Assembly: GCA_964634875.1 (NCBI GenBank)
Contig: CAZWKA010000003.1
Coordinates: 16,591-80,590 of the forward strand
DNA: 64,000 bases
DNA from: an uncultured Gammaproteobacteria bacterium
GTDB taxonomy: Bacteria > Patescibacteriota > Patescibacteriia > Magasanikbacterales > GWA2-37-8
Direction: 5' to 3'
The position numbers and the translations under genes are program-made. A model generated the notes under the pieces. The model did no database searches. It saw only the letters and a list, made by a program, of their open reading frames with translations, and had not been told where the DNA came from. Within the stretch, counting starts at the first letter, position 1, and the number at the start of each line of letters is the position of its first letter. Shown here piece after piece: positions 2,615-60,094 of this stretch.

Positions 2615-5572
2615 ATGATCTTACATCAAAATAAAAAGGAGGGGTCATTTATTCGTTTTCACAAAAGACATTTTCTTGTTGCGTTTATAGTTATGGTAGT
2701 GAGCACAGTATTTGTTACTGGGCTCGTTTTATTTTTTGTTAATTTATATCCACCTGGTTTGTCGCGCGCGGCTACTGTCGTTTGGACAGGTGAGACAGGG
2801 GATGGTTTGTGGCAAACGGCAGGCAACTGGAGCGGATCAGCTGTCCCGACTGCTTCTGATGATGTGACTATAGCTTCAACCAGTACTTTAATTACGGTGA
2901 CACTTTCATCGGGGCAAACGGCTAATTTTAGCACCCTAACTATTGGCGGGGAAACGTTATTGACTAATTTTATCCTCGAAGGGAATATTGGAACCGGTGG
3001 AAGTATTACAATTGATAACTCTGGTGTATTGGAGCAAAAGAATGCTGTTACTCAAACAATTAGTGGTACGCTGACTATAAAGGGCGGGGCAACTGGCGGT
3101 AAGTTAACACATACAGGAAATGCTTCTTCACAGAGTTATATTTTGAATTTTGTAGCTCAAGCTATTGATGTGCAAGCGGGTGGAGTCATTGATATTACGG
3201 GAAAAGGTTATGGAGATGCCAATTCTGGCCCCGGTCCTGGTATCGGTCAATCCAATGAGGGTGTTATTGAGTCAGGTGGTGGGGCGCACGGCGGTAATGG
3301 TGGAACGTATAATTTTTCACAAGGCGGCATTGGTTATTGTTTGGTAACCGATATTACAACCATGGGTTCGCCAGGTGGGCAGGCTGGTGGAGAGACTTTT
3401 AACGACCCAAGGCATGGTGCGGGAGGTGGGCTTGCTCTGCTGCGCTCGATCGCGACTACAACATTAAATGGTTCAATTATTGCTTCAGGTGCCGCAGGTA
3501 CTACTCTTGCAGACAACACGTATAGCGGAGGTGGGGGTGGAGGTGGTTTGCGAATTACTGCTGGCGGTGCGATTGCAGGTACTCCAACCGCAGTAACAGC
3601 TAACGGGGGCGCTGGTTTTGGTGAAGGTTCGGCCGCTGGCGGAGGTGGTTGTATTCAGTTGTCCTACCATACAACAAACTCAATTACCGCTCTTGGAGAC
3701 ATGGTAACGGTTGATGGCGGTGCTCAGTTTGTAGGTGCAAATCCGACTGCTGGTTTATTTTACGCTGCCCAAACTAATGCAGTCCCAACTACTACTGTTA
3801 CCAGCGTTGTTCAATCAACGACTTCCACAGTTACTTTTGTCGCCAGTGTCACTGATGTTGATTTAGACGTAACAAGCCTTGTGGTAGAACATTCGCTCGA
3901 CGGCGCAAACTGGTCGTCTTCTACGCTGGGTAGTGTTACCCCAAGCCAGGGGTCGGTCAGCACTTCAACCGGCCGTATTTCTGGTATTGCCACCGACACT
4001 GCTACTACGACACTAACAGCAGTTTGGAATATCGGGATCGACGCGCCGACAACAACAACCTCGACTGCCTACATGCGTTTTGTTCCAACCGACGGCGCAC
4101 TTACCGGCGCTGTGGCCACTTCGACAGTTTTTTCTATTGTAACGGTTCCCCCGAGTGATTTAAATATTACGAGCGTGACAGACCATGAAGCGAATTTTAC
4201 CTGGTCAACCCAGGATGTTTTTACAAGTTATGCGCTGCAAGATGTTGCTAATGCCGTTTCATCCGGATGGGTTACCGGGGATAGTCATCAGATTACTGAT
4301 TTAACCTGTGGAGTTGCATATACTTTTGCTATTAAAGGTAAAAGCAGTGCGGATGTTGAAACTGGTCTTTCCGCTAGTATTGCGACCACAACACTTAATT
4401 GTGGTCCAGCCTTTTCGGCGAGCGGGGGTGGTGGGGGTGGTGGAGCAAGTGATTCAGGAAGCTCTGCTCCAGCGCCGAGCCCAAGCACAGACGCGCCACA
4501 GCAACTGGTAACTGTACCTTTATTTTTACAACCACCGGTAACTCCTGAAGTGCTATTAAATGTACCTCTTACGCCCGTGCCGCAGGACAGGCTTTTGCAA
4601 CCGCTTACGGTTTTGCCGCCACCAACGACACCGTTGGTTCCAGACACCGTAGTATTGCCGCCACCGTTGCCTCCTCAGGAAGTGCAGTTGATTTTAAACC
4701 AGCAAGAACAAATAGCGCAAATCATTACCCAATCCGCCCAGGTCATTGCTCCTGTACTACAAGTAACCACGCCGGTAACGGTCGGTGCAGCGACGCACAG
4801 TGTAACGGTTTCCGCTGCTTCCGCATCGAGTATTACATTTGTTCTTCGTTCTAATCCAATTACCCTTACTCTACAGGCCGGTGAGCAGCGTGAGGCTGAT
4901 ACAGACGGGGATAGTGTGACAGATGTCTTGGTGTCATATAAAGGCTTGTTGGAAGGAAAACCGCTTTTGGCTTTAGCGCCGCTGATTAATCAGGATGAAG
5001 CTGTGGGTCCGTTTACCATCAATACCGGTGCCCTGCAGACAAAATCAACCGATGTGTTGCTTACCTTTGGTGTGAAGGATATTCGTTCGATAGAAATTTC
5101 TAATACACCAGATTTTGTTTCGAGCGTGCACTTTGTTGCTGCTTCTTCAACGCGCTGGAGGCTTCCTACTGAGGCTGGTGTCGCTACGGTGTATGCCCGT
5201 ATTTATAAAAATAATGATACGGTCGTTGGGGTGAGTGATAGTATCTTTGTCCGACCAGAAGCTTTGCCTAATTGGTCGGCTGTGATCCCGAAACCCGTTG
5301 CAACCTCCACCGTACCGGTACAAAAAGCGAAGCCAGTACCTGTGGTGTTTAAAACTCCCCTGAGAGCTGGTAGTGTGGGGAATGAAGTTCGCATGCTTCA
5401 AGTAATTCTTAAAGCGCAGGGGTTATTTCCCGTGCAGCAAGCCGTAACCGGTTACTTTGGTCAGTTTACGTACCAAGGGGTTGTCGCTCTGCAAAAGAAA
5501 AATTCCCTTACCCCTATCGGTCAGGTTGGGCCGCAGACGAGGGCACTTCTGAATGTTTTATCTGCTGAGTAA
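2615..5572 (+). CDS. large cell-surface protein with N-terminal TM anchor, Gly-rich beta-helix-like repeats, FN3-like segments, Pro-rich linker and C-terminal peptidoglycan-binding domain
   Basis: 985 aa. N-terminal hydrophobic helix, GGxGGxG runs and a PxxP-rich region. The C-terminal GNEVRMLQVILKAQG...GYFGQFTYQGVVALQK fits the PG_binding_1 pattern. Confidence 0.6.
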   Translation: MILHQNKKEGSFIRFHKRHFLVAFIVMVVSTVFVTGLVLFFVNLYPPGLSRAATVVWTGETGDGLWQTAGNWSGSAVPTASDDVTIASTSTLITVTLSSGQTANFSTLTIGGETLLTNFILEGNIGTGGSITIDNSGVLEQKNAVTQTISGTLTIKGGATGGKLTHTGNASSQSYILNFVAQAIDVQAGGVIDITGKGYGDANSGPGPGIGQSNEGVIESGGGAHGGNGGTYNFSQGGIGYCLVTDITTMGSPGGQAGGETFNDPRHGAGGGLALLRSIATTTLNGSIIASGAAGTTLADNTYSGGGGGGGLRITAGGAIAGTPTAVTANGGAGFGEGSAAGGGGCIQLSYHTTNSITALGDMVTVDGGAQFVGANPTAGLFYAAQTNAVPTTTVTSVVQSTTSTVTFVASVTDVDLDVTSLVVEHSLDGANWSSSTLGSVTPSQGSVSTSTGRISGIATDTATTTLTAVWNIGIDAPTTTTSTAYMRFVPTDGALTGAVATSTVFSIVTVPPSDLNITSVTDHEANFTWSTQDVFTSYALQDVANAVSSGWVTGDSHQITDLTCGVAYTFAIKGKSSADVETGLSASIATTTLNCGPAFSASGGGGGGGASDSGSSAPAPSPSTDAPQQLVTVPLFLQPPVTPEVLLNVPLTPVPQDRLLQPLTVLPPPTTPLVPDTVVLPPPLPPQEVQLILNQQEQIAQIITQSAQVIAPVLQVTTPVTVGAATHSVTVSAASASSITFVLRSNPITLTLQAGEQREADTDGDSVTDVLVSYKGLLEGKPLLALAPLINQDEAVGPFTINTGALQTKSTDVLLTFGVKDIRSIEISNTPDFVSSVHFVAASSTRWRLPTEAGVATVYARIYKNNDTVVGVSDSIFVRPEALPNWSAVIPKPVATSTVPVQKAKPVPVVFKTPLRAGSVGNEVRMLQVILKAQGLFPVQQAVTGYFGQFTYQGVVALQKKNSLTPIGQVGPQTRALLNVLSAE

Positions 5573-5573
5573 T

Positions 5574-5611
5574 AAAAAAATATCCACCTTGAGTAAGGTG
5601 GATATTTTTTT
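5574..5611 (+). terminator. rho-independent terminator
   Basis: Stem ATATCCACCTT gagt AAGGTGGATAT followed by TTTTTTT. Confidence 0.8.
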
Positions 5612-5681
5612 GATGCTCCACTTCGTCCTATCGCTCATACGAACTAATTCGTAGGAATGATAGGGTGGGCGAAGTGGGGTG

Positions 5682-5714
5682 GGGGCTCCGCGCGTTTTTG
5701 GCGCGCGGAGCCCC
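5682..5714. repeat. perfect 13-bp GC-rich hairpin at the left edge of a high-GC islet
   Basis: GGGGCTCCGCGCG-tttttgg-CGCGCGGAGCCCC. It is preceded by a second long imperfect inverted repeat at 5617-5680. Confidence 0.7.
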
Positions 5715-5726
5715 TGGATTGGCTTT

Positions 5727-6380
5727 CTAGCGGCGCCAGAAAGCCAGAAACATGAGGGCGAAGGGTGCGGTGCAGACCGCGCCGAGGAACACGAACGCGA
5801 CGAACCGTGCTCTCGGCGAGATCCGGCTGACGCGCCGGATGGCCTGGGTGCGGCGCTCCTGCTCGGGGATCAGCGTATATGGCTGCGTGCCGTTGCTGAT
5901 GGGGTGCCGCTGCGTGCCCTGCTCTGTGATGGGGAACAGGCCGGTCTCAGCCCCACGCAGAACCGCGAGCTGCATGGTTCCCTCTCTGGACAGGTCGAGT
6001 GTCGGGATCTCTTTGGTGTCGTCCTCGTCGCCCATGCTCTGCACCTCTTTGGTGGCGGTGAGCTGGCGCTCGAACGCGGCCAGGCGCAGGTTCAGCAGGG
6101 TCTTGTCCGGATCCTCCTCCAGTTCGTCAAGGAGGGGGGTGAGAGCCTGAAGCGGGGTGACAGACGAGGCCGGCGGCGGCACCTCAAGCGGCCGAGCCAA
6201 CAGTGTCAGCGCGTAGGCCTCCTGGTGGAAGCCGCGCGGGTTCGTGGGCGTACGCTCATCCCCGAAGAGAGGGGGTGTGCGGCTCGAGGGCGGGCTGTCG
6301 GCAGAGCTCTGCGGCGGGCACGACGGGTCAATCAGGGGCTTGGCGAAAAGGGGCGGAGTCAGACTGCTGTGCGTCTTCAT
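5727..6380 (-). CDS. proline-rich protein with C-terminal transmembrane tail anchor, encoded in a high-GC islet
   Basis: ATG at 6380 has GAGGT 6 nt upstream. The C-terminal stretch FVAFVFLGAVCTAPFALMFLAFW is hydrophobic. GC is visibly far above the flanks, and the opposite strand also shows long ORFs, as expected for GC-rich DNA. Confidence 0.45.
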   Translation of the reverse strand: MKTHSSLTPPLFAKPLIDPSCPPQSSADSPPSSRTPPLFGDERTPTNPRGFHQEAYALTLLARPLEVPPPASSVTPLQALTPLLDELEEDPDKTLLNLRLAAFERQLTATKEVQSMGDEDDTKEIPTLDLSREGTMQLAVLRGAETGLFPITEQGTQRHPISNGTQPYTLIPEQERRTQAIRRVSRISPRARFVAFVFLGAVCTAPFALMFLAFWRR

Positions 6381-6420
6381 GACTGTTACCTCGCTGGGTG
6401 GCAAAAAAGGTCGGGCATTG

Positions 6421-6469
6421 TAGCGGTGAAACAGTCTGATTAATAGCTTTATTAGACTGTTTCACCGCT
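6421..6469. repeat. 17-18 bp inverted repeat (hairpin) at the right edge of the high-GC islet
   Basis: AGCGGTGAAACAGTCTGAT ... ATTAGACTGTTTCACCGCT with one mismatch. Confidence 0.7.
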
Positions 6470-6685
6470 AGAACACTTTTTTAAGGAACAAAAAAACCTG
6501 CGGCTTTCGCCTACAGGATGCTCCATCCTAGCACATTTTTAGGGTTTTGTCAAGGGTGTTTTGGGGTATTTTGGCTAATTTTAGCTATTTTTATAGTTTT
6601 AGAGTAGTTCAAATACCACTATTTACTGTTGCGGGCAAACATTTTTAAGCAGTATCTTTTCTTGAGGCAAGAAGTTATTAGTGGT

Positions 6686-6710
6686 AAACTATAATTTCTA
6701 ATTATAGTTT
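6686..6710. promoter_or_regulatory. 10-bp perfect inverted repeat AAACTATAAT-N5-ATTATAGTTT immediately upstream of the J-domain gene start (candidate operator)
   Basis: Seen directly. Ends 9 bp before the ATG at 6719. Confidence 0.4.
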
Positions 6711-6718
6711 CTATATGT

Positions 6719-7660
6719 ATGCCTGGTAATCGAGAATGGCTGGTCCCCGCTGAATTTATAAAAAGAAAACCAACAAATTTGTATGAGGCACTTAAACTGC
6801 CTTTCCTTGCCTCGCCCGGCGAAGTGAAGGAGTCATATCGCCGTCTGGCAATGCGCTATCACCCAGACCAGGCCGGCACCAAGACTCCAGAGGAGATTCA
6901 AGCTGATGAAGAGCGTTTTAAAGAAGTTGATGAAGCGTACCAAATTTTAGCTCAGCCTGAAAAAAAGTTGAAGTATGATTTTGATACCATGGAAGCAGAG
7001 ACTGAAAAAGCAATGCACACGTGGAAAGAATGTGGAGGGCCAGATTTTGCCAATAAGCCGCAAGAGTACGAAATGCTCGCTCGCGATGAGGAAGCTTTTT
7101 TTAACAGCCTTTTTCGGACTGATCAGGCGAAAGAAAAAGCAACCAAAGTGTTGTCTGACCTTGGTTTTCACCGTGCCCCTGATGTGAAAGACCGTTTCCC
7201 GTATACTTTTATAGATACCGACCCTGGCGATACTGATGGGGCGTCAAACATTGTGTATGAAGCACGGGCGCTCCGTAAGGACGCAAAAGACCTTGGAAGC
7301 GCTGCTCAAAAAATTGTGGAGGAATGGGGCGAAAAGGAGGGTGTCCTTGACGCTCTCGGAATAAAACAGAAAATACGCGATTATATTGACACCGCGCGCC
7401 GAAAATTTTTTACGCCCCAGGCGATCGCTTATAGCGAAGCCGCTATAAAAATGTATGGCTCAAAGCAAAAGCGAAGGCAGACCGAATTTTTTTTAACCAA
7501 CTCCGATAGTCTGCTTAAACAGATGAAGGCGTACGACGAAACTGCCCAAGTTAATTTGTTGCCACAACAAGAAGGTGTTGATAAAAAAAAGCTGGCCACT
7601 TCTTTGCGAGGGCGGCGTTTATTATTTGTCGGACATTTAGAGACGATCGGTCTCGAGTAA
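6719..7660 (+). CDS. J-domain (DnaJ-like) protein
   Basis: N-terminal YEALKLPFLASPGEVKESYRRLAMRYHPDQ carries the HPD motif. The rest is an uncharacterised charged region. Confidence 0.7.
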   Translation: MPGNREWLVPAEFIKRKPTNLYEALKLPFLASPGEVKESYRRLAMRYHPDQAGTKTPEEIQADEERFKEVDEAYQILAQPEKKLKYDFDTMEAETEKAMHTWKECGGPDFANKPQEYEMLARDEEAFFNSLFRTDQAKEKATKVLSDLGFHRAPDVKDRFPYTFIDTDPGDTDGASNIVYEARALRKDAKDLGSAAQKIVEEWGEKEGVLDALGIKQKIRDYIDTARRKFFTPQAIAYSEAAIKMYGSKQKRRQTEFFLTNSDSLLKQMKAYDETAQVNLLPQQEGVDKKKLATSLRGRRLLFVGHLETIGLE

Positions 7661-8171: not shown

Positions 8172-8753
8172 TTATCCCACTTGTCTTATCCAATCTCGGA
8201 TGATGCTTTGAATTCTCCCTATCTCTATTTCCGGCAATTCTCCGGTATGCATAATTATGTTTCTTGATAGTTCTAGGTCGTTAAAACGAGATGATATCCA
8301 GTGTTGATCGGGAAATAGATCGGAGAAATTCTCCCAATTAGCAACTATGATTTGAGCCAAGTTGCCAAACATTGTGTAACCTATTAACGAAGAGGATCGT
8401 GGAGTGTGGTATTTATTTTTCTCTTCTTTAGCCCTTAGATTTTCTGCTTGTTCCTGTACTTTCTTGGGAACATTGTCTTTCCACCATCCAATCCCAGCTC
8501 TCAATAAAAGTCGTTCTTCAATTAATTCTCGAACTGCGTTTTCCAAACAAAAGAACGATTGGTATGTCTTTGACATAAGACTAGCTCGATGTACTAAGAT
8601 TGGGCTGAAATCAGTTTCTTCCAAGACAGTGTCTTCCTCTTCTTTAACTATTCCCGAGTCAATCCCATCTCTCGTAAGTTTAATTAAGCTTTCGGTTGCA
8701 AGAATGCCATTAAAAACTAATTTTTTGAGCTGCTGTAAATTTGTTTTGTACAT
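8172..8753 (-). CDS. HEPN-domain protein (Rx4H motif), second gene of a two-gene cassette
   Basis: C-terminal LSRNIIMHTGEL matches Rx4-6H. Mostly helical composition. The local DNA is AT-rich, about 37% GC by eye. Confidence 0.55.
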   Translation of the reverse strand: MYKTNLQQLKKLVFNGILATESLIKLTRDGIDSGIVKEEEDTVLEETDFSPILVHRASLMSKTYQSFFCLENAVRELIEERLLLRAGIGWWKDNVPKKVQEQAENLRAKEEKNKYHTPRSSSLIGYTMFGNLAQIIVANWENFSDLFPDQHWISSRFNDLELSRNIIMHTGELPEIEIGRIQSIIRDWIRQVG

Positions 8754-8762
8754 AAGCCGGCC

Positions 8763-9389
8763 TTACTCAAATAAATTTTCTCTCAAGCTTTTAAAAATTG
8801 CACTATAGACACTTATATCAGTTGTTGCTGGCAAGTGTATTTCTATATTGTGATGGAAACTTAATGCTTTGGCTTCTTCCGGCGTTATCGGTTTTTGTGT
8901 TTTTTCATTTGTGCCACCACCTTTTTTTGTCTTCTCTTCTGTGGTTGGAGGAGGTGATATTTTAGGCGAAGCGCCAAATTTTGCTAGACCAACCAGTGCT
9001 TTATATGTCGCAAAGTATCTAGTGACCGTTTTCTCATCTTTGCCCGTAACTCGTGCCATTGCCCCTTTTATTGTATCTTCTGATTGCGTGTGCATCTCTG
9101 TATTGATTGCATAGATGTCTTTGTAGAGTTCAATTAATCTTTCCCCAATGACAAAAGGGTGGTCTTGTCGATCTTTCAGTCGGTCATAGTATTCTGTTGG
9201 AGCTCCGTCATCATTAAGTATATTAAGTCGTTTTAGAAGGGGGATTATTGCTCGGTCGTTAGAGCTTGCAAATCCCATTTGTTTAAGAAGTTCATTAGTA
9301 AATTTTTTTGGTTTTTCCGCAACTTTTATTTGTTCGAGAATAAAACTTATTTTATTGTTAGCGACCATGTAAGGGTATGTTTCTGGCAT
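8763..9389 (-). CDS. hypothetical protein, upstream partner of the HEPN gene (possible antitoxin/specificity partner)
   Basis: 208 aa. Stop lies 9 bp before the HEPN start on the same strand. No recognisable catalytic motif. Lys/Glu-rich middle region. Confidence 0.5.
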   Translation of the reverse strand: MPETYPYMVANNKISFILEQIKVAEKPKKFTNELLKQMGFASSNDRAIIPLLKRLNILNDDGAPTEYYDRLKDRQDHPFVIGERLIELYKDIYAINTEMHTQSEDTIKGAMARVTGKDEKTVTRYFATYKALVGLAKFGASPKISPPPTTEEKTKKGGGTNEKTQKPITPEEAKALSFHHNIEIHLPATTDISVYSAIFKSLRENLFE

Positions 9390-9515: not shown

Positions 9516-10664
9516 TCATTTCCTCCTCGTAAACCACCAGCTCGCCAACAGCGTCGTTAACGGCACAGCCAGCACCAGCACGCAACTGCCCACCAGCGTA
9601 CGCACTAATTCTTCGGCAATAAAATTACTATTAAGCATGATCCACAACTGGGTGGATTTTTGCATGCTGTAGAGTAATAAGAGTGGGAACGACACGCCGA
9701 CGTAGGCGAGGACGAGCGTGTTCACGAGCGAGGCAATATGTTCGCGGCCAACCGAGAGGCCGCTTTTGTATAATTGAGCCAGGGAAACGGTGGGGTTGGC
9801 AGTATGGATTTCTTCGATTACAGCGGCTTGGGCTGTGGTGATGTCGTCAAGGACACCCAGGACGCCAATGAGAATGCCGCCGAGGAGTACGCCGCGCAGA
9901 TCTATCGTGCCGGCACCAAGTTGCAGGTAAAAGGCTTCTTCGGTACCGGTGCCTGCCAGTTTGGCAAAACGAACAAAGACAATGTCGATAATAATAGCGG
10001 CGCCAAGGGTGAGGAGGGTGCTGATAAGGGCGATGGTAGTGCGGCGATTAAAGCCGTGCGAGAGGTAGAGCGAACAAAAACAAATCAGGAGGGCGGCAAT
10101 GATGCAAGCGACCAACGGGTCGTGCCCGGCAGCGATGCGAGGGATTAGGAAGCGGAAAATGACCAGGGTTGTAAAGACTAGGCCGAGGATGGAGGTGAGA
10201 CCGCGCTTGCGGCCAAAGAATATGGCGAGCGCAAAAAAGACGGCGACAAGTATGAGGACGTTGGGCAGGCGGTACTTATCGGTAATGTAATAAAAGTCTT
10301 CTTTAATGCCGCCGGCGGGCTTGGTAATTATTACCACGTCACCCGCTTGTACTTTTTGGTATTCCTGGATGGCAAAGAGGCCACCGTGGTCGATAGTAAT
10401 TTTTTTACCTTTTTCATCGCCGCTCACAATCTCAAGTTCCAGTTTTTGGTATTCCTGCGGCGTACCATCCGCGTCTTTGGTGCCGCTCTCCACGACCTGC
10501 AGAACTTTGGCGCGGGCAAAGATGTCCGGTGCATCATTTACAATGGGCGCGTCTAAGTCGAGCGGCGCTTCTTCGAGTGTCTGCATCTGTGCCCGGTGGG
10601 GGAAAAATGCGGACAAAAAGAGAATGATACAAAAGAGGCTGCGGGTAAAGAAAGTGTGGTGCAT
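9516..10664 (-). CDS. YibE/F-family integral membrane protein
   Basis: 382 aa. N-terminal extracytoplasmic domain followed by about 8 TM helices, the typical YibE/F layout. Confidence 0.7.
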   Translation of the reverse strand: MHHTFFTRSLFCIILFLSAFFPHRAQMQTLEEAPLDLDAPIVNDAPDIFARAKVLQVVESGTKDADGTPQEYQKLELEIVSGDEKGKKITIDHGGLFAIQEYQKVQAGDVVIITKPAGGIKEDFYYITDKYRLPNVLILVAVFFALAIFFGRKRGLTSILGLVFTTLVIFRFLIPRIAAGHDPLVACIIAALLICFCSLYLSHGFNRRTTIALISTLLTLGAAIIIDIVFVRFAKLAGTGTEEAFYLQLGAGTIDLRGVLLGGILIGVLGVLDDITTAQAAVIEEIHTANPTVSLAQLYKSGLSVGREHIASLVNTLVLAYVGVSFPLLLLYSMQKSTQLWIMLNSNFIAEELVRTLVGSCVLVLAVPLTTLLASWWFTRRK

Positions 10665-11137: not shown

Positions 11138-11150
11138 GCAACTAAGTTGC
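11138..11150. promoter_or_regulatory. palindrome GCAACTAAGTTGC (copy 1 of an operator-like repeat)
   Basis: Part of the ~27-bp motif GCAACTAAGTTGCGTTTGTCAAATAGG. Sits between two minus-strand small-protein genes. Confidence 0.5.
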
Positions 11151-11637: not shown

Positions 11638-12309
11638 TTATTCGTCTGCTGGTTCGTCGATCAGTGTGCTGGGTGCTCGGGGAACCAAATCTAGCTGAAG
11701 GTACTGTGGCGACGCGGGTTGTTTTGGTTCTGTTTCCCGCTTGAGAGCGAATTTCCACCCCAGCATGAGCGGTACCAAGTGCCATTCCCAAGGGTGCCCG
11801 TTCGCCAAGTTGAGCGGTGCCAGCATGGCTGCTTCGCTGCCGATGACAAAACCTTTGTACCGGAAACTGATGCCGCCGAGCAGCGGGCCGAGTTTGACTT
11901 CGGTCTGGCTCTGGTAGGGCTTTTCAATTTCTAGCACGATTCCAGGCAGGTGCAGTTCGAGCGACCAATGCTCGCTAAGGTGGATATCAAGCCCGCCGGT
12001 AAGGTGAATGTCGCCACCCGCCCGGTCGCCACCAATTGCCGCGTGCAGGCCGGCAACAATGCCAAAGTCGACGCTGCCCGCTTCGGCGAAAGGGAATTCA
12101 AACTCGAAACAGAGCGGGGTCATGAGTTGGAGGATAAATCCGCTTCCACCCTTGAGGCCAGTTGTGGCCGTGCGGGAACTATCGTATTTGGTGGGGGAGG
12201 CTACCGCTTGGCCGGAAAATATTGGGCCACCGCACCACAAGGCTGAGGGGGATTCGGCCCTCGCAACAATGCTCCAGGCAAGGAGCGTGACGATAACGAG
12301 GTAGCGCAC
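11638..12309 (-). CDS. secreted beta-strand-rich protein (porin/OmpW-like pattern)
   Basis: GTG start at 12309 with AAGGAGA 5 nt upstream. Signal peptide. Alternating hydrophobic pattern and a C-terminal aromatic residue. Confidence 0.4.
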   Translation of the reverse strand: MRYLVIVTLLAWSIVARAESPSALWCGGPIFSGQAVASPTKYDSSRTATTGLKGGSGFILQLMTPLCFEFEFPFAEAGSVDFGIVAGLHAAIGGDRAGGDIHLTGGLDIHLSEHWSLELHLPGIVLEIEKPYQSQTEVKLGPLLGGISFRYKGFVIGSEAAMLAPLNLANGHPWEWHLVPLMLGWKFALKRETEPKQPASPQYLQLDLVPRAPSTLIDEPADE

Positions 12310-12324: not shown

Positions 12325-12337
12325 GCAACTTAGTTGC
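12325..12337. promoter_or_regulatory. palindrome GCAACTTAGTTGC (copy 2)
   Basis: Lies 16 bp upstream of the GTG start of the 11638..12309 gene on its promoter side. Extended motif GCAACTTAGTTGCACTTGTACCACAGG. Confidence 0.5.
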
Positions 12338-12368: not shown

Positions 12369-12381
12369 GCAACAAAGTTGC
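12369..12381. promoter_or_regulatory. palindrome GCAACAAAGTTGC (copy 3)
   Basis: Upstream of the Fur-family regulator gene. Extended motif GCAACAAAGTTGCGTTTATCCACAGG. Confidence 0.5.
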
Positions 12382-12450: not shown

Positions 12451-12891
12451 ATGACTACTTCGCACCAAGTTATCGCTGACCTTAAGGATCGGGGAGAGCG
12501 CATTACCGAAATCCGGCGCATCTTGGTAGACATTCTCGCCAAAAGTCACAAGCCGTTATCGGTGCAAGATATTTTGGCGAAATTAAAAATTCGCTGTATT
12601 GAGGCGAATAAAACCACCGTCTATCGTCAATTGGAAACGCTCCATAAGTATAATTTTATTTACGAAGTGCGTTTGGCGGATCGTTCGGTTTTGTACGAGC
12701 TTGCCAGTGAAGACGATCACCACCATCATTTAGTGTGTCTCGGTTGCGGTACGATAGAAGATGTGTCGTTTAAGGACGACGTGGAACGCCAGGAAAAAAA
12801 TATTTTAAAAATAAAGAAATTTAAAGTTGTGCGCCACTCGCTCGAATTTTTCGGCTGGTGCGCTAAATGTCAGAAAAAATATGGCAAATAA
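12451..12891 (+). CDS. Fur-family metalloregulator (Zur/Fur-like)
   Basis: 146 aa. HHHHLVCLGCG ... CAKC metal-binding motifs and a winged-helix N-terminus. Confidence 0.8.
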   Translation: MTTSHQVIADLKDRGERITEIRRILVDILAKSHKPLSVQDILAKLKIRCIEANKTTVYRQLETLHKYNFIYEVRLADRSVLYELASEDDHHHHLVCLGCGTIEDVSFKDDVERQEKNILKIKKFKVVRHSLEFFGWCAKCQKKYGK

Positions 12892-17862: not shown

Positions 17863-17898
17863 CTAATAGTACCAAGGTCGTTCGTAGAGTGTTTTGTA

Positions 17899-17937
17899 AA
17901 AAAATACCCAAACTTTTTAAGTTTGGGTATTTTTTTG
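17899..17937. terminator. bidirectional terminator hairpin
   Basis: AAAATACCCAAAC-tttttaa-GTTTGGGTATTTTT. Confidence 0.75.
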
Positions 17938-18006: not shown

Positions 18007-18435
18007 CTAGTTGAGGGGCTCGAGGGCGATCGTGACCCAGCGCTCGCTCTCGAGCTGCTGCTGCCGGGGCTGTCGTAGCCGCTCCTGGCTTAGCCGAAAC
18101 GAGGCACGCAGGAACGTCTCGAAGGCTGAGGCGCGTAGCGGGTTCATCTTGATGTAGTAGCACCGCCACCAGTTGGGGTTGGCTCGGTCGAAGGTGGTCG
18201 AACGGGTCGTCCGGCTCTTCTGGACCATGACGAGGATGCGACGCCCGGGACCCTTGTCGTCTTCCCGAACGAGCTCGCCTTCGTCGTCGATGCCGACGAA
18301 TTCCCTGAGGACGCGCAGAATGTCCTCGTGGAAGATGGAAACCTGGCCTGGCCACCGTGCCGCTTCTCCGTCGGAGAGCTGGTGGACCAGGATACCGGGC
18401 TCAGCCACCTCTTTACTCGCTGCTTCGATCATCAA
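18007..18435 (-). CDS. hypothetical protein encoded in a high-GC islet
   Basis: ATG at 18435 with AAGGAGG 5 nt upstream. 142 aa with no recognisable motif. GC visibly about 60% versus low-40s flanks. Confidence 0.4.
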   Translation of the reverse strand: MMIEAASKEVAEPGILVHQLSDGEAARWPGQVSIFHEDILRVLREFVGIDDEGELVREDDKGPGRRILVMVQKSRTTRSTTFDRANPNWWRCYYIKMNPLRASAFETFLRASFRLSQERLRQPRQQQLESERWVTIALEPLN

Positions 18436-21716: not shown

Positions 21717-21850
21717 AAAAATAACCCCAGGGTTTCCTGGGGTTATTTTATAATGAAGACTGTCCTCACCCTGCCTGCATATGTACATATTCGGGCACGG
21801 TGAGATAAAGGGGACAGTCTTGAGTCTGTGGGGTTGGGGGGTCGTAGCGG

Positions 21851-22285
21851 TTAGCTGAATCGGGAAAGGTCAGTCGGGAACTCGGTCTCGATCACCAGCT
21901 GTAGCGCTGAAACAGAAACCGGTTTCACTAGTGTGCCTTTGATGCCTAGGTTTCGAAGATCCAGACGTTCATGTCCGGTCGCCAGATAGGCGGGAACGTG
22001 GGCGAGAGTGCTGTCAGCCCGCAGTTGCTCGACCAGCCAGAATCCATCGTGCACGGGCATAGAAGCGTCAACGAAGACGAGTTTAAGTCGTTCGCCGACT
22101 GCTCTCGCCTCGTCCAGGCCATCAGCCGCATTCGTGGCGCTGATGATGTGGTAACCTGCGCACAGGCCACTAACGAGCATCGAGAAGAGCTCGGTTGTGT
22201 CAGGGCAGTCATCAACAACCAGGATGACAGGTCGGCCTTCCGGCCTGCTGGATGTGGGGAGTGCTTCTGGAGTATGGGTCAGCAT
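21851..22285 (-). CDS. stand-alone response-regulator receiver (CheY-like) domain protein, high-GC islet
   Basis: ATG at 22285 with GGAGA upstream. VILVVDD...LVFVDASMP...LATG...K motifs. The ORF may extend to 22345. Confidence 0.55.
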   Translation of the reverse strand: MLTHTPEALPTSSRPEGRPVILVVDDCPDTTELFSMLVSGLCAGYHIISATNAADGLDEARAVGERLKLVFVDASMPVHDGFWLVEQLRADSTLAHVPAYLATGHERLDLRNLGIKGTLVKPVSVSALQLVIETEFPTDLSRFS

Positions 22286-28012: not shown

Positions 28013-28041
28013 TTGACAAAACCCTTAAAAAGGGATAGAAT
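28013..28041 (+). promoter_or_regulatory. near-consensus sigma70 promoter TTGACA-N17-TAGAAT
   Basis: Seen directly. The -35 element sits in the loop of a 9-bp hairpin (TTTAAGGG...CCCTTAAA). Confidence 0.6.
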
Positions 28042-31907: not shown

Positions 31908-32312
31908 CTACGGTTCGATGATGTCGGGGTAGTCCGACAGGTCGCAGGGGTTACGACGGCTGAGCAGTTCAGGGGCGGGGTGATCCGCGCTCAAGTAGAA
32001 CATGAATTCAACGTCCTCGGGGCCGATGTGGAGCGCGACGTAACCGCTGATGCTACCAATGGTTTGTTTGGTATATACCTTGGTGTGTCCATGGTAGTCG
32101 CGGAAGGCGATCTTCGCTGGTACGCCGCGGTTGGCGAGGATGACGCAGGTCGGCCACTTCTTGGGATCAGTGACGCGCGGAGCATTGGGGTCGCCAGCGA
32201 CTCGGAGGGCTTCGCCGAGTTTGGGGTCAGTTGGCGATGTATCCTCCCAGCCGGAGCAGTTGCCAAACCCGAGACAGGTAGTGCCCAACAGTGCTAACAG
32301 GTGTTTGTTCAT
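31908..32312 (-). CDS. small secreted protein encoded in a high-GC islet
   Basis: ATG at 32312 with AAGGAGA upstream. Signal peptide MNKHLLALLGTTCLGFGNC. Confidence 0.4.
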   Translation of the reverse strand: MNKHLLALLGTTCLGFGNCSGWEDTSPTDPKLGEALRVAGDPNAPRVTDPKKWPTCVILANRGVPAKIAFRDYHGHTKVYTKQTIGSISGYVALHIGPEDVEFMFYLSADHPAPELLSRRNPCDLSDYPDIIEP

Positions 32313-32973: not shown

Positions 32974-33465
32974 CTAGGTTAGGCCGAGAAGTCCGGCAAG
33001 GATATAGAGACCAAGTGCGACAGCGACACCGAGTAGCACAGCGTACAGCCTTGTCTGGCTTGGCATATGTTCAAACGGTGGCAGAATAACCTCTTCGGTG
33101 TTGTCTGCCGGATCGCGGGAGAGGGGCGGGATTGTCGGCGCCGTCGCCCGCTTGGTGAGCACTGTAGGTCGCATTGTCCGGGGAGGATAGATGGGTACCG
33201 GCACTGCCCCTAGTGGCCTCGTGTGCCTTTGGACTTCATAGACAGGGTCAGCATCGATGTTAGTCTGCCCAACTTCTACTTGAGGTGCTGGCGGGGGCGT
33301 AGGCAGGCCGAGGTAGTTGGCTTCGAGCACCGTGGGTTGCACCGGCAGTGCTGCGGGTGGTGGCTGGGGTGTCTCGCCAGGCCTGCCCAAGATGCGTTCG
33401 AGCAGGGTGGGCTGGTTACGCTTTGCGACCGGGGTAACTGGGGCTCGTGGTCTCAGTTTTGCCAT
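32974..33465 (-). CDS. proline-rich protein with C-terminal TM tail anchor, high-GC islet (paralog-like of 5727..6380)
   Basis: ATG at 33465 with GAGGA upstream. C-terminal LYAVLLGVAVALGLYILAGLLGLT. Pro-rich throughout. Shares the ..QRH..P..G.. segment and overall architecture with the 5.7-kb islet protein. Confidence 0.45.
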   Translation of the reverse strand: MAKLRPRAPVTPVAKRNQPTLLERILGRPGETPQPPPAALPVQPTVLEANYLGLPTPPPAPQVEVGQTNIDADPVYEVQRHTRPLGAVPVPIYPPRTMRPTVLTKRATAPTIPPLSRDPADNTEEVILPPFEHMPSQTRLYAVLLGVAVALGLYILAGLLGLT

Positions 33466-37686: not shown

Positions 37687-39153
37687 ATGGAAACTTTTTT
37701 GACACTACCTTTTGGCATATCGTTCAGCCTCTCGTTTTGGCAGAACCTTTTTTTGTTACCTCCATACCAGCTCATTATCATGATTTTTGCGATCGGTGGC
37801 TGGGCAGTCTTGGCGCTTATTTTTTTCTTTATGGGCTCTGAGCTCTGGAAGGACTACCGCCAGGGTAAGTACACTAAAAATTGGCAGTGGGTTGTTTTAG
37901 CAGTAGATGTTCCGGCGCTTTTTATCCAAACGCCAAAAGCAGTTGAGCAGATTTTCGTACATCTGAGTGGGGCTAAAACAACCCCAAATGTGGGCGAAAA
38001 GTATTGGCAAGGTAAAAAGCAGAAGAGTTTTAGCTTTGAAATTGTCAGTATTGAAGGGTATATCCAGTTTTTAGTCCGTTCTGAAGTTGAATACCGTGAT
38101 TTAGTAGAGGCGGCTATTTATGCCCAGTATACTGAAGCCGAGATTACGGAGGTTGAAGATTACGTTGATAATATTCCTACGCACTATCCCCACCCAAATT
38201 ATGATATGTTTGGCATCGAATTTGCGCTCGATAAACCAAGTCCATTTCCCATTCGTACATACCCTAGTTTTGAGTATAACCTGAGTAAAGATGCGGTATT
38301 TAGTGACCCCATGGCGGCAATTCTGGAAAATTTTAGCCGTATTGGGCGAGGAGAAAATTTTTGGATGCAAATTATTTTAGAACCAATTAGTAGTAAGTGG
38401 AAAGAAGAGGGGATCGAACTTGTTAAATCAATTATAGCGAACAAGGGGTATTCGGGTGGACACGGAGGCCATGGTGGCGGTGGTAGCATGTTAACGGGTG
38501 CTTTGTCGGCAGTCATGGGGGTTTTGCACGTCATCATTAAAGAAATTGGCAGTGCACTTCTTGGTGGGGGCGAAGAGGAACATGGTGGAGGGCATGAGGA
38601 CGCACACGAAGAAGGCAAACTTAGTGACCTGTCACCTGGTAATAAGACGGTCATTGAGGCGGTTGAACAGAAAATTTCTAAAATTGGTTTTAAAACTAAG
38701 TTGCGTATTCTGTATGCGGCGCGTAAAGAAGTGTTTAACCCAAGCAAATGTCTTGACGGTTTTGTGGGGGCGATGAGTCAATTTAACATCCAAGACAGCA
38801 ATTCCCTGGTGCCGCACCATGATACTTCCGCGCAGTATTTATTTGCTAAATCCCGAACCGACCATCACAAACACCATTTTACTAGCGCTTTTAAGAAACG
38901 TAAGTTGAAGGCGCTTGGGGATCCTTATATCCTCAATATTGAAGAGCTAGCGACAATTTGGCATTTCCCGCTGCCGTTTGTTAAAACGCCACTTATTCAG
39001 AAAGCTGGTGCCAAGCGTGCCGAACCTCCGATGGGTCTACCCGTCGAAGCCAGCGAAAGCCCGCTCAAGCGCCGTACGCCGGTCCCTCAGGCAGCGCCGC
39101 CGCAATCAACCGTGCCGGTACAGGAAGCACCCGAAGATTTGCCCTATGGTTAA
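37687..39153 (+). CDS. membrane protein homologous to the N-terminal (non-ATPase) half of the VirB4-like ATPase at 48943..51498, with Gly/His-rich insert
   Basis: N-terminal TM helices. FEIVSIEGYIQFLVRSEVEYRDLVEAAIYAQYTEAEITEVEDY parallels FEIVVKENKISFYVAVPDKIRDLVEQQIHAQYPHAEITEESDY in the 851-aa protein. EELATIWHFPLPFVKTP parallels EEMASFWHLPVPHTETP. No P-loop. Confidence 0.5.
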   Translation: METFLTLPFGISFSLSFWQNLFLLPPYQLIIMIFAIGGWAVLALIFFFMGSELWKDYRQGKYTKNWQWVVLAVDVPALFIQTPKAVEQIFVHLSGAKTTPNVGEKYWQGKKQKSFSFEIVSIEGYIQFLVRSEVEYRDLVEAAIYAQYTEAEITEVEDYVDNIPTHYPHPNYDMFGIEFALDKPSPFPIRTYPSFEYNLSKDAVFSDPMAAILENFSRIGRGENFWMQIILEPISSKWKEEGIELVKSIIANKGYSGGHGGHGGGGSMLTGALSAVMGVLHVIIKEIGSALLGGGEEEHGGGHEDAHEEGKLSDLSPGNKTVIEAVEQKISKIGFKTKLRILYAARKEVFNPSKCLDGFVGAMSQFNIQDSNSLVPHHDTSAQYLFAKSRTDHHKHHFTSAFKKRKLKALGDPYILNIEELATIWHFPLPFVKTPLIQKAGAKRAEPPMGLPVEASESPLKRRTPVPQAAPPQSTVPVQEAPEDLPYG

Positions 39154-39186
39154 AAATAAAAACTGCCTCCATAAGTGGGGCAGTTT

Positions 39187-40104
39187 TTATTTTTCTTGGT
39201 AACGGTTTTCGGCGGCTAGGAGCGTATTGTAGAGTAGTAAGGCGATAGTGATGGGGCCGACACCTCCGGGGGTTGGGGTAACCGCTTGTGCCTTTTTAAT
39301 CACTTCTTCAATATTGACATCGCCAAACACCTTATTGTCTTCAATGGCGACCCCAGCATCGATTATAATACTGCCGGGTTTGACCATATTGCCGCGGATT
39401 AAATTCTTTTTGCCAACACCACTAATGAGTATGTCGGCACTTAGGCATTTTGCTTTGAGATTTTTGGTCTGGCTGTTACAGGTGGTGATGCTTGCTTTTA
39501 GGTTGGGCAAGATGATGCTCAGCGGTTTCCCGACTAAAAGTCCCATGCCAACAAGGCAAATATCTTTACCGGCCACGCTAATGCCAAGGCTGGCAATAAT
39601 TTCGAGAATCGCCCCGGCGGTCGGTGGAATAAACATATTTTTTCCAAGAACCATGCGGCCAATACTTGATTCGTTAAGACAATCAATGTCAAATTCAGGT
39701 TGAACCGCATTAATGAGTGTGGTTGTTTCAAGGTGTTTTGGAACAGGCAGTTGGATGATAAGCCCAGAGATTTTTTTACTACGCTGGATGCTTTTGATTT
39801 TCTTGAGAATAGTTTCTTCGGTGGTAGTGGTATCGAAGCGAAAGAGGGTAAAATCAATCCCTAGTGTTTTGGCAATCTCACCTTTTTTGCGCACGTAGGT
39901 CTCTGATGCCGGATTGTTGCCAATTAAAATAACTCCTAAGTGAGGAGTATGGCCGTTTTGATGCAGCACGCGCACGCGGCGGGCGGTTCGCCGGTTAATA
40001 GCGGTGGCAATTTTTTTTCCGTCTATGAGTGTTCCCATGGGAGTATTTTTGCCTAGTATAAGGCTGTTTTTAGTATTTGTCAATTTTGCCTTGAACTGAG
40101 CCAT
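39187..40104 (-). CDS. folD: bifunctional methylenetetrahydrofolate dehydrogenase/cyclohydrolase
   Basis: IDGKKIA...LGVILIGNNPASETYVRKK...GDVNIEEV...PTPGGVGPITIALLL motifs. An alternative ATG at 40038 lacks a Shine-Dalgarno sequence. Confidence 0.9.
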   Translation of the reverse strand: MAQFKAKLTNTKNSLILGKNTPMGTLIDGKKIATAINRRTARRVRVLHQNGHTPHLGVILIGNNPASETYVRKKGEIAKTLGIDFTLFRFDTTTTEETILKKIKSIQRSKKISGLIIQLPVPKHLETTTLINAVQPEFDIDCLNESSIGRMVLGKNMFIPPTAGAILEIIASLGISVAGKDICLVGMGLLVGKPLSIILPNLKASITTCNSQTKNLKAKCLSADILISGVGKKNLIRGNMVKPGSIIIDAGVAIEDNKVFGDVNIEEVIKKAQAVTPTPGGVGPITIALLLYNTLLAAENRYQEK

Positions 40105-41706: not shown

Positions 41707-41818
41707 TTTTTTGTTTTTACTGCTACGGGAAATTTTTGAAATAAAATAACGATAGCGTCAGCCGAATTTGCGGCACTAGGTTTTTTCGGGACTGCCAGGC
41801 CGTGTAGGATTGTAAAAA

Positions 41819-45812: not shown

Positions 45813-46226
45813 GTGGATATGAAGAACATCATTTTTGCTTCCTTGGCAGTTTCCTGTGGCATTGGATGTGCGCATCAGCCGCGCGTGGCTCCGCTACTGC
45901 CGGTCAAATCACGCCCAGGCCTTAACCGCGAGAAGATCCTGGTCGAAGTTGCTCCCTCAAACTTGTTTGGGCAGCATTATGCAGGCCTTCGGGCTGTGGT
46001 CATATCATTTCAGCCCCAAGAACGTGTCTGGACGTATTCTGGGGGCAACTATGGCCGTACCCCGGTATGCCCCGGTGAGCGTTCGGTGCCATTTTTTTTC
46101 CAGCCGCGTCCAGAGTACGTGTCTCCGGACCTGCGCAACCTCAAAACAGGGCGACGAGCCAAAATGTACTTTTTTCCAAGTACAACCAGGCAAGTTGAGG
46201 TGATCTTTATTTGTCCGGATATGTAG
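45813..46226 (+). CDS. small lipoprotein/secreted protein in a moderately GC-elevated segment
   Basis: Signal peptide MKNIIFASLAVSCGIGCA. No homolog recognised. Confidence 0.4.
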   Translation: MDMKNIIFASLAVSCGIGCAHQPRVAPLLPVKSRPGLNREKILVEVAPSNLFGQHYAGLRAVVISFQPQERVWTYSGGNYGRTPVCPGERSVPFFFQPRPEYVSPDLRNLKTGRRAKMYFFPSTTRQVEVIFICPDM

Positions 46227-60022: not shown

Positions 60023-60094
60023 GAGGTCTCTTCACTAAAATACCCGGGTTTGTATACCCGGGTATTTTATTAGGTTTGGAATATTTTCTTTCTA

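Follow-up and report, generated by a model that had tools for sequence, protein, structure and literature searches.

A GC-rich single-gene islet and its hairpins in a low-GC bacterial chromosome

An orphan gene in a GC-rich block

The window, that is, the whole 64-kb stretch of DNA that was analysed, belongs to a chromosome of 46.7% GC. Across 5660-6385 of the window the GC content rises to 65-70%, and a fine GC profile gives these positions as the limits of the block, which we call islet A (mean GC 0.67 versus 0.467 in the genome). Its surroundings are a housekeeping region of the chromosome, with TPI, tRNAs and SecA. Between the hairpins at its two ends there is one open reading frame only, as an earlier note on this DNA had described. 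This frame, ORF A, lies on the minus strand at 5727-6380 (ATG at 6380, stop codon at 5727-5729) and encodes 217 amino acids. Its GC content by codon position is 0.66/0.51/0.84, and this periodicity, found on the minus strand only, is typical of high-GC coding DNA; the GC3 of host genes is 0.35-0.50. The GC-normalised dinucleotide distance (delta*) of the islet to the host is 205, while size-matched 750-nt host segments reach 175 at most. Composition, codon-position GC and dinucleotide signature all deviate from the genome, as do the expression signals, in which a Shine-Dalgarno (SD) site sets the gene apart from resident genes; both kinds of deviation are those of an acquired islet. The description of the segment as compositionally foreign is thus strengthened by its GC3 and by a signature beyond that of every size-matched host segment.

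The ORF A product contains 12% proline, its N-terminal two thirds are disordered, and a helix is located at about residues 81-115. Its sole hydrophobic segment comprises residues 191-215 and is followed by RR; Kyte-Doolittle windows above 1.6 start at residues 191-197 only. In the AF2 model a helix spans residues 189-216 with pLDDT above 90, and this TM helix is the only confident part (overall pLDDT 56). Hydropathy and modelling therefore agree with the initial picture of a proline-rich protein whose one hydrophobic helix is C-terminal. As in tail-anchored proteins, the only TM segment is C-terminal, in the last 27 residues (the class limit is about 30), with no N-terminal signal, TM or other hydrophobic segment and with basic residues before the helix. 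This basic cluster, RRVSRISPRAR, suggests that the N-terminal domain is cytoplasmic. The product would then be a tail-anchored membrane protein with a disordered, proline-rich cytoplasmic domain. Unlike known tail-anchored proteins, it has no sequence or fold relative, and the proline-rich domain gives no clue to a partner.

Database searches returned nothing related to this protein. There was no match in Pfam, PHROGs, PADLOC, NCBIfam or the PDB sequences, and no homologue in a word-indexed search of 5.8 billion proteins or in six-frame scans of viral and metagenome contigs. An exhaustive phmmer search of 1.84 billion representatives gave no homologue and did not return the query itself either, and the product has no record in public collections. 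The islet DNA had no blastn match in phages and plasmids. Close relatives of the genome are likewise absent from the collections (SecA identity at most 66%), and there is no empty site for comparison. Those SecA relatives keep the SecA-x-SecDF gene order around a variable interval, without homologues of the genes of islets C and E (described below), and the SecA-linked loci of the nearest relatives hold no such islets. When genome contigs were searched with the flanking DnaJ-like gene, they yielded unrelated J-domains apart from one true relative, on a 1,075-bp contig that is cut inside the gene. As neither a donor nor a homologue was found in these searches, the transfer is judged from composition and signals alone. 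They make acquisition of a single gene from a high-GC donor the most likely origin of islet A, and it is from the same features that we infer the direction and source of the transfer.

Promoter, leader and 3' structures

On its 5' side the gene is preceded by a host-type sigma-70 promoter (6525-6553, minus strand; TTGACA-17-TAGGAT, with TG upstream of the -10 element). This promoter has the TTGACAAAACC motif in common with host promoters and, over 29 nt, has about 83% identity with a host-gene promoter at 28013-28041. Some 2 nt past the predicted transcription start, a short stem-loop with a GNRA loop and then U7 (6490-6517, minus strand) folds at -16.1 kcal/mol; it may be either a 5'-terminal stabiliser or an attenuator-type terminator. 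Further into the leader lies an inverted repeat with core arms at 6422-6440 and 6451-6469 and one mismatch, which extends to 26-nt arms of 88% complementarity (6418-6473, minus strand). Its position, first given as 6421-6469, is correct within 1 nt. With 38% GC the repeat is host-like; it lies outside the GC-rich block and its sequence has no second copy in the window. It had been described as having no T-run. This is true of the bases that immediately follow it, but distant flanks of this kind are present, A6 at 6403-6408 and T6 at 6477-6482, the latter 7 nt from the core stem. The SD core, GAGG, is at 6389-6392 on the minus strand, 8 nt upstream of the ATG. The leader fold has z = -5.2, and the 3' arm of the repeat can also pair with the SD/AUG region (-17 kcal/mol, versus -28 kcal/mol for the hairpin). 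Because of this complementarity, the predicted role of the repeat in the RNA is most likely to modulate expression, through partial termination or through control of access to the ribosome-binding site. Expression of the gene may be low or absent, since any transcript from the sole good promoter would have to pass two terminator-like structures before the ORF.

The 3' side is a stack of structures. The one nearest to the gene, a 13-bp hairpin with one mismatch (5720-5746, minus strand), was found in the inverted-repeat listing and by folding; it takes in the TAG stop codon of ORF A and is a fourth hairpin, missed in the earlier note. Starting 13 nt past the stop codon, within the GC-rich block, is a perfect 13-bp stem-loop of 92% GC without a U-tract (5682-5714, minus strand), with arms GGGGCTCCGCGCG (5682-5694) and CGCGCGGAGCCCC (5702-5714) and a 7-nt loop. 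Immediately downstream of it the minus strand reads CACCCCAC and the plus strand TGGATTGG, and it is the sole GC-rich stem of more than 9 bp in the 64 kb. In the 3' UTR beyond it, folding gives a long imperfect hairpin of about 23 pairs (5617-5680, minus strand), of intermediate composition (42-53% GC) and again with no second copy of its sequence in the window. The coordinates first assigned to these two left hairpins are accurate within 1 nt. The stack is closed by a host-type bidirectional intrinsic terminator, also overlooked before, at 5574-5611 (A7, 10-bp stem, T7; a perfect 17-bp palindrome). It directly follows the stop codon (5570-5572) of a convergent 985-aa gene, and is common to that gene and the islet gene. 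The hairpins of islet A far exceed what chance would give: the z score of the fold of 5560-5760 is -12.9, and perfect stems of at least 10 bp occur at 11 loci in the window versus 0.7 in shuffles, which gave none of 13 bp or more.

We took a canonical intrinsic terminator to be a GC-rich stem-loop with a U-tract within 0-2 nt. The GC hairpin has no such adjoining tract on either strand, and the right repeat, with its nearest T6 at 7 nt, does not qualify either, so the earlier statement that the two are not canonical terminators stands. Nor is the GC hairpin a generic terminator of the host, in keeping with the earlier reading: the host terminators are all A-run/stem/T-run palindromes, like that at 5574-5611, and the 92%-GC stem is one of a kind in the 64 kb. 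Terminators of this design lie at 17898-17936, 21718-21749, 39152-39194 and 60036-60069, and the terminator-type perfect stems of at least 10 bp elsewhere in the window have 20-46% GC. Two further palindromes, at 6686-6710 and 41808-41831, are short and AT-rich and are not terminators. A terminator scan of the coding strand of the islet gene called neither the GC hairpin nor the right repeat. On the minus strand the 8 nt after the GC hairpin contain no U (the class cut-off is fewer than 3), which places it with the HS-U-lack or I-shaped terminators. U-tract-less, highly structured 3' ends were the majority, 353 of 535, in Term-seq of Streptomyces; the HS-U-lack class was described in Streptomyces clavuligerus (PMC8269248) and may be compared with the "I-shaped terminators" of high-GC Actinobacteria. 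Like these, the islet hairpin has a long, perfect, GC-rich stem close behind the stop codon, is embedded in high-GC DNA and has a predicted role at the transcript end. Unlike them, it sits in a low-GC host genome, and another hairpin and a canonical terminator come after it. By this analogy we propose that the GC hairpin may be a donor-type 3'-end or stabilising element.

No Rfam family reached its threshold over islet A. The model of the Streptomyces sodF 3'UTR sRNA (RF02790) scored 33.7 bits at 5623-5717 on the plus strand, below its gathering threshold of 46, and this resemblance of the left hairpins rests on a generic two-hairpin geometry. A group II intron or another known RNA was rejected on the lack of an Rfam match at threshold and on the clear codon periodicity. 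Both hairpin sets fold more strongly as plus-strand RNA (-69.4 versus -58.9 and -37 versus -31.9 kcal/mol), which does not favour an RNA role on the minus strand.

Sibling islets and Shine-Dalgarno sites

The 64 kb contain at least five minus-strand genes rich in GC3, islet A and its siblings B to E, all of which have an SD site and a TTGACA-type promoter. The SD core is present in all five islet genes versus none of the 40 host genes checked (Fisher p = 8e-7), and many of those 40 look leaderless. In islets B to E the promoters feed SD-led ORFs, in B through a leader of only 30 nt, and islets B and D start directly after the T-run of a host terminator. Islets A, B and D have a common, non-host dinucleotide signature. 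The distances between A and D (77) and between B and D (94) are inside the within-genome range, and that between A and B (128) is above the within-genome mean and below the 95th percentile. This common signature suggests that A, B and D come from one high-GC donor. The protein of islet C has the same tail-anchored architecture as that of islet A, with no detectable similarity between the two. Very large searches with protein D gave only its self-match and no homologue, narrower searches with B and E gave no match, and viral relatives were found for none of B, D and E. Protein B also had no tblastn match in phages or plasmids; its model has pLDDT 61, and a Foldseek search of the PDB gave nothing below E = 0.7.

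Three more SD-led genes, F, G and H, are of intermediate GC. Their SD sites mean that SD use may be a native minority mode and not purely a foreign mark. Resident genes appear to start translation without SD sites, and three independent marks, an SD site, GC3 and dinucleotide signature, can identify foreign genes in this window. The host is probably a groundwater bacterium of the Patescibacteria/CPR type. Islands acquired by HGT are frequent in Patescibacteria (PMC12455944). A transfer like that of islet A is an ordinary kind of event; it is the SD contrast that is notable. If the pattern holds genome-wide, it would offer a natural system for the study of how an SD-less, largely leaderless bacterium expresses SD-led foreign genes. 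It would also give a handle on the DNA donors of an uncultured, streamlined bacterium, possibly including its partner organism.

Origin of the islet and role of its hairpins

The explanation that we favour, with somewhat better than even confidence, is that islet A is a horizontally acquired ORFan with a donor-type ribosome-binding site and 3' hairpin, and that the hairpins are mRNA end structures and not the borders of an element. The foreign block, from about 5660 to about 6392, would have brought the SD site, the orphan ORF and the U-tract-less GC stem-loop from a high-GC, SD-using donor. Transcription on the minus strand would begin at the host-type promoter (6553-6525) and run through a structured 138-nt leader, with the 5'-proximal stem-loop and U7 and then the long inverted repeat. 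The 3' hairpin stack would form the end of the transcript, with the host bidirectional terminator (5611-5574) as the last stop. The left hairpins would thus serve as 3'-end or stability elements of the mRNA, the perfect GC hairpin being of donor type, and the right inverted repeat as a leader structure in recipient-type DNA; therefore the two sides would not be matched element borders. We infer these RNA roles, and the expression of the gene itself, from where the hairpins lie relative to the minus-strand ORF. They fit the earlier suggestion of an RNA-level role such as stability, with 3'-end formation or stability on the left and leader structure on the right. The hairpins would then find their explanation in ordinary biology, as the end structures of the mRNA of a foreign gene.

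The alternative suggestion, that the hairpins are paired boundaries or recombination sites, did not hold up: they have no common sequence, they differ in composition and they lie on opposite sides of the compositional edge. The check for repeated boundary elements gave neither hairpin a second time in the 64-kb window, and the other islets hold no sequence related to them, having only the promoter motif in common; repeated boundary elements were rejected on these grounds. Terminal inverted repeats (best match 10/12) and attC sites were rejected as well, since the scans were empty: neither the R' nor the R'' core (RYYYAAC ... GTTRRRY) is found on either strand of 5600-5760. The ORFs scanned, which are most of those in the window, gave no match to a transposase or integrase. 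Islet A lacks the marks of a transposon, MITE or IS element, with no combination of terminal inverted repeats and target-site duplication, no multiple copies in the 64 kb and no family match for its only ORF. The sole flanking direct repeat is the 9-nt GATGCTCCA (5612-5620 and 6517-6525), a weak candidate for a target-site duplication; shuffles put the chance of a common 9-mer in these zones at about 0.09, and islets B to E have no equivalent. It is conceivable that the segment 5621-6516 was inserted as a unit that duplicated this 9-bp sequence, with the terminal hairpins as sites for a recombinase or transposase acting in trans. One copy does abut the host terminator precisely (5612), and the other marks the base of the leader hairpin (6517). 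Likewise, a host terminator T-run immediately precedes islets B and D, and an independent assembly of the same run (Logan) breaks at both edges of the GC block. However, a repeat that shuffles give in about 9% of cases and that B to E lack, the single-copy hairpins, the empty scans for terminal repeats and attC cores and the lack of a recombinase among the ORFs scanned argue against it. In addition, the Logan contig ends do not join into an empty site, and a poly-G end such as that of one of them is typical of a drop in coverage. We regard such an insertion as improbable.

The same assembly bears on whether the islet is real. Its contigs cover all four sibling islets, B to E, with 100% identity and read into both edges of islet A, but the interior, 5686-6385, is absent from it, and both flanking contigs stop at the edges. 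One (L001) starts at 6386 and includes the SD; the other (L002) crosses the imperfect hairpin, reads to 5685 and ends in poly-G junk. This gap, together with a protein that has no public record, could point to an assembly chimera, in which a 700-bp fragment of a high-GC community member was misjoined into the contig. A chimera would, however, not rejoin the original genome 700 bp later, nor give a complete ORF with its SD on L001 and the start of its 3' hairpin on L002, and the four sibling islets are spanned by independent contigs. We consider a chimera very unlikely. Equally remote is a native origin by vertical descent, of a gene or a structured RNA that is GC-rich for functional reasons and not because it is foreign. 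The promoter and leader are host-like and SD-led genes of intermediate GC are present, but amino-acid content cannot explain a GC3 of 0.84, and the three-base periodicity excludes a non-coding RNA. The non-host dinucleotide signature, the lack of an Rfam family at threshold and the lack of such islets at the SecA-linked loci of the nearest relatives also speak against this origin.

Silent cargo deserves more weight, though we still judge it unlikely. Here islet A would be a recent, unexpressed foreign block, with flanking host-type stops that wall off neighbouring transcription, and its ORF would be open by chance, through nothing more than the scarcity of stop codons in DNA of 67% GC. Two of the stops would lie on the right side, namely the repeat (with A6/T6 at a distance) and the hairpin-U7 at 6490-6517, and one on the left, the terminator at 5574-5611. 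The two terminator-like elements between promoter and ORF agree with this. So does the inverted repeat with A6/T6, which resembles the A-run/stem/T-run layout of host terminators and has its stronger fold on the plus strand. A GC3 of 0.84 suggests a very recent arrival, and the product is one without a public record, for which the exhaustive protein search missed even the query. Against it, the SD is correctly spaced from the ATG, and the 217-codon ORF occupies all of the block between the SD region and the 3' hairpins; by our own arithmetic, the probability that 225 codons stay open by chance at such GC is about 0.006. The promoters of islets B to E lead into SD-led ORFs, in B over 30 nt only, and a T-run as far as 7 nt from the core stem makes a poor intrinsic terminator. 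Likewise unlikely is a wider proposal, that A to E belong to a set of dispersed single-gene cassettes which an episymbiotic, CPR-like bacterium systematically captures from a high-GC organism, its partner or host, and expresses; they are wired to consensus promoters of the recipient and retain donor SD sites and codon usage. Under this proposal the cassettes encode orphan proteins that are tail-anchored, secreted or highly charged, and in its extreme version the genes are tuned for translation in the partner.

Several known systems resemble the acquired gene that we favour. Phage morons (Hendrix and colleagues) are reportedly autonomous promoter-ORF-terminator units recognised by their deviant base composition. 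Like them, islet A has a promoter of its own, one ORF and then a stem-loop; it lies between two unrelated genes, differs sharply in GC and has no assigned function. Unlike morons, it is in a housekeeping chromosomal region and not in a prophage, has no phage relatives, and combines a recipient-type promoter with a ribosome-binding site and 3' hairpin of donor type. Integron cassettes also have an ORF and then an imperfect hairpin of about 60 nt; islet A differs in the missing R''/R' cores, the lack of a visible integrase or cassette array, its own promoter and its single-copy hairpin. The sodF sRNA of Streptomyces differs in that the islet hairpins are below the threshold of its model. The islands of Patescibacteria/CPR (PMC12455944) are, like islet A, deviant accessory DNA in small, streamlined genomes, with a donor that is often not recovered. 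Islet A differs from them in being far smaller (0.7 kb, one gene) and without mobility genes, and the islets in this window are dispersed and not clustered.

The islet A gene and its product

The category that suits islet A best is a known one, an orphan gene acquired by horizontal transfer together with the ribosome-binding site (RBS) and 3' stem-loop of its donor. The window is a segment of bacterial chromosome (46.7% GC) with housekeeping genes including TPI, SecA, SecDF, DnaX, CysRS and LigA, as well as five tRNAs. Islet A forms a GC-rich block at ~5660-6385 (57-80% GC in 40-nt windows) between a 985-aa surface-protein gene (2615-5572, plus strand), to which it is convergent, and a DnaJ-like gene (6719-7660, plus strand), from which it is divergent. 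This block is protein-coding on the minus strand. In the frame 5727-6380, GC at codon positions 1/2/3 is 0.66/0.51/0.84, which is the classical high-GC pattern, and the long plus-strand ORF across the islet has the mirror-image values of an antisense frame. The Shine-Dalgarno (SD) core GAGG is located 8 nt upstream of the ATG (6380).

The product had been described as a Pro-rich tail-anchored protein, and the predictions agree with this. The 217-aa protein contains 12% proline, compared with 4.6% for host proteins, and its sole hydrophobic stretch (residues 191-215) is followed by RR. AlphaFold2 without an alignment is confident for the terminal helix 189-216 alone (pLDDT above 90), models a helix at 81-115 with moderate confidence and predicts the rest to be disordered. 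We found no match in any profile library searched and no PDB sequence match. Searches of 5.8 billion clustered proteins and, exhaustively with phmmer, of 1.84 billion representatives gave no homologue either, and six-frame scans of viral and metagenome contigs were likewise negative. The gene is not recorded as a called gene in public collections. Judged by these sequence searches, the protein is an orphan.

Two other features lie close by. A perfect 11-bp AT-rich palindrome (AAACTATAATT-TCT-AATTATAGTTT; 6686-6710) covers the -10 region that immediately precedes the DnaJ-like gene and is a possible operator. Just right of the DnaJ-like/AHSA1 genes, an AT-rich (35-39% GC) Swt1-like HEPN and DUF5343 gene pair (8172-9389, minus strand) is possibly a module for defence or a toxin within this variable neighbourhood.

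Hairpins around islet A

The hairpins of islet A are real and are unusual for the host genome. Every structure named in the earlier note is present, i.e., the perfect 13-bp GC hairpin (5682-5714; 92% GC, no U-tract), the imperfect hairpin (5617-5680; ~23 pairs) and the right inverted repeat (core arms 6422-6440 / 6451-6469, one mismatch). Two elements at the left edge had been overlooked. These are a textbook A7/stem/T7 bidirectional terminator (5574-5611) abutting the stop codon of the 985-aa gene, and a 13-bp hairpin (5720-5746) that holds the stop codon of the islet ORF. The 3' UTR of the minus-strand gene therefore runs from the stop-codon hairpin through 13 nt to the 92%-GC stem-loop, the imperfect hairpin and the terminator. 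The 5' leader begins with a host-type promoter, TTGACA-17-TAGGAT with an upstream TG (6553-6525, minus strand), and continues with a short GNRA stem-loop and U7 (6517-6490, minus strand), the inverted repeat (6473-6418), the SD and the ATG. Such structures greatly exceed chance expectation: we counted 11 loci with perfect stems ≥10 bp in the window, compared with 0.7 in composition-preserving shuffles, and four hairpins in a row are predicted for the 201 nt downstream of the ORF (z = -12.9). Nor are they generic terminators of ordinary gene ends: host terminators all follow one design, an A-run/stem/T-run palindrome whose stem is AT-rich or of moderate GC, the window has no GC-rich stem >9 bp besides that of islet A, and the hairpin sequences have no second copy in the 64 kb with 2-3 mismatches allowed.

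The proposal that the two hairpin brackets are paired boundaries or recombination sites is not supported, because they differ in both location and composition. In the fine GC profile, the perfect GC hairpin is inside the foreign block and the right inverted repeat (38% GC) is outside it, in host-composition DNA. We rejected recombination sites, as terminal inverted repeats and attC core motifs are both absent from islet A, and boundary elements, as it shares no common sequence except a promoter motif with its four sibling islets, B-E. No mobility genes were found among the ORFs scanned. As a direct repeat, the flanks share only GATGCTCCA (5612 and 6517); a 9-mer common to both flanks arises in ~9% of shuffles and has no counterpart at the other islets, and we keep the repeat as a weak lead.

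SD-led genes in the host chromosome

At least four more minus-strand genes in the window have the layout of islet A. They are islet B (18007-18432, 141 aa, GC3 0.81; segment 17937-18450), islet C (32974-33465, 163 aa, GC3 0.59; segment 32960-33470), islet D (62741-63682, 313 aa, GC3 0.81; segment 62690-63690) and islet E (31908-32312, 134 aa, GC3 0.72; segment 31900-32320). Just outside each islet is a host terminator common to it and a convergent gene, and upstream of each is a TTGACA-type promoter in AT-rich DNA; islets A-D account for four of the ten strict TTGACA-N16-18-TAnnnT matches in the window. Like protein A, protein C is rich in Pro (18%) and has one TM helix, at the C-terminus, but no similarity between the two is detectable. 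Family matches were not found for islets B-E, nor viral relatives for B, D and E, and protein D has no detectable homologue and is an orphan like protein A. In composition-normalised dinucleotide distance, A, B and D are farther from the host (205-242) than any size-matched host segment. Among themselves, the A-D (77) and B-D (94) distances are in the within-genome range, and A-B (128) is above the within-genome mean and below the 95th percentile. These values are compatible with one donor or donor type for A, B and D; the signatures of C and E are unlike theirs. The 230-nt leader of islet D contains a five-codon mini-ORF, MSFQR* (63777-63794, minus strand), with a strong AAGGAGG SD, which could be a leader peptide or a remnant of an upstream donor gene.

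The islets also differ from the host in their translation signals. None of the 40 host gene starts checked, which include 2615, 9516-10664 (minus), 25084, 39187-40104 (minus), 40126 and 60095-60547 (minus), has an SD core at -20 to -4, whereas all five islet genes have GAGG, AGGAG or AGGAGG at proper spacing (Fisher p = 8e-7). In about nine of these 40 host genes, only 6-12 nt separate a TATACT-like -10 box from the ATG. Boxes this near the ATG point to leaderless mRNAs and suggest that leaderless or SD-independent initiation is widespread in the host. Scanned blindly for SD-led ORFs, the window yielded all five islets plus three genes of intermediate GC (GC3 0.55-0.65), encoding a secreted protein (11638-12309, minus), a lipoprotein-like protein (45819-46226, plus) and a response regulator (21851-22285, minus). 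These three may be older, partly ameliorated acquisitions or a native SD-using minority. The interest of the locus lies less in the hairpins than in an architecture family of SD-led high-GC genes within a host genome that is apparently SD-free otherwise.

Origin of islet A

We consider it fairly probable that a fragment comprising RBS, ORF and U-tract-less GC stem-loop came from a high-GC, SD-using donor and was fixed in the intergenic gap. Transcription would start at the recipient-type promoter and end at the recipient's bidirectional terminator, with the GC hairpins serving as barriers or stabilisers at the 3' end. In Streptomyces, U-tract-less stem-loops make up the majority of structured transcript 3' ends (353/535; PMC8269248). 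Islet A matches the Streptomyces sodF 3'UTR sRNA of Rfam at 33.7 bits, below the gathering score of 46; the match reflects the same geometry and, in our view, does not argue for membership. Within this explanation, we are least sure of what the right repeat does. Two partners are available to its 3' arm (GACUGUUUCACCGCU): the 5' arm of the repeat (-28 kcal/mol) and the RBS region AGCGAGGUAACAGUC (-17 kcal/mol), which is identical to that 5' arm at 12/15 positions. Because of these alternative pairings, an anti-anti-SD / anti-SD / SD arrangement is plausible. Alternatively, the right repeat, the hairpin with U7 and the distant A6/T6 runs may form a transcriptional barrier, with the gene silent or expressed by read-through only. 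Both hairpin sets are predicted to fold somewhat better as plus-strand RNA, owing to G.U pairs, which counts against a role solely as minus-strand RNA.

Logan contigs from an independent assembly of SRR12762304 are 100% identical to the window and span the other islets with host flanks (B by L003, E and C by L093, D by L092); islet A alone falls in a gap, of exactly 5686-6385. Contig L002 covers the imperfect hairpin and the first 4 nt of the GC stem before turning into poly-G junk, and L001 begins at 6386 and includes the SD. An assembly chimera is unlikely, since the contig re-enters the same genome after 700 bp and the complete ORF fits exactly between the SD on one flank contig and the start of the 3' hairpin on the other. 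L001 and L002 do not join end to end and thus give no hint of an allele without the islet. The simplest reading of the gap is a coverage drop in the most GC-rich islet.

The searchable collections contain no close relatives of the recipient; SecA reaches 66% identity at best, to a sequence of Hainich groundwater small-cell fractions, and the DnaJ-like flank has its sole relative on a 1-kb contig. More distant relatives keep the SecA-x-SecDF synteny with a variable interval, and show no GC islets. For these reasons, neither an empty site nor a donor is demonstrable for islet A. We infer that the host fits Patescibacteria/CPR from its streamlined genome, sortase and type IV pilus genes, lack of SD sites and groundwater relatives. 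Loss of the anti-SD is reported in part of this group (PMC9297842), and HGT islands are common in it (PMC12455944).

Two further elements of the window deserve mention. The palindrome GCAACTnnGTTGC occurs three times (11138-11150, 12325-12337 and 12369-12381; 0.01 expected), in or beside the promoters of two minus-strand genes and next to genes for a Fur-family regulator (12451-12891) and a Mn/Zn ABC transporter, and it is probably a metal-regulator operator. The ~250 nt at 62393-62640 (plus strand; GC ~0.6) are without codon periodicity and have no Rfam family match; they are predicted to form a long hairpin (-112.5 kcal/mol, z = -5.2) with a T-run at its end, and are a candidate for an unclassified structured RNA.
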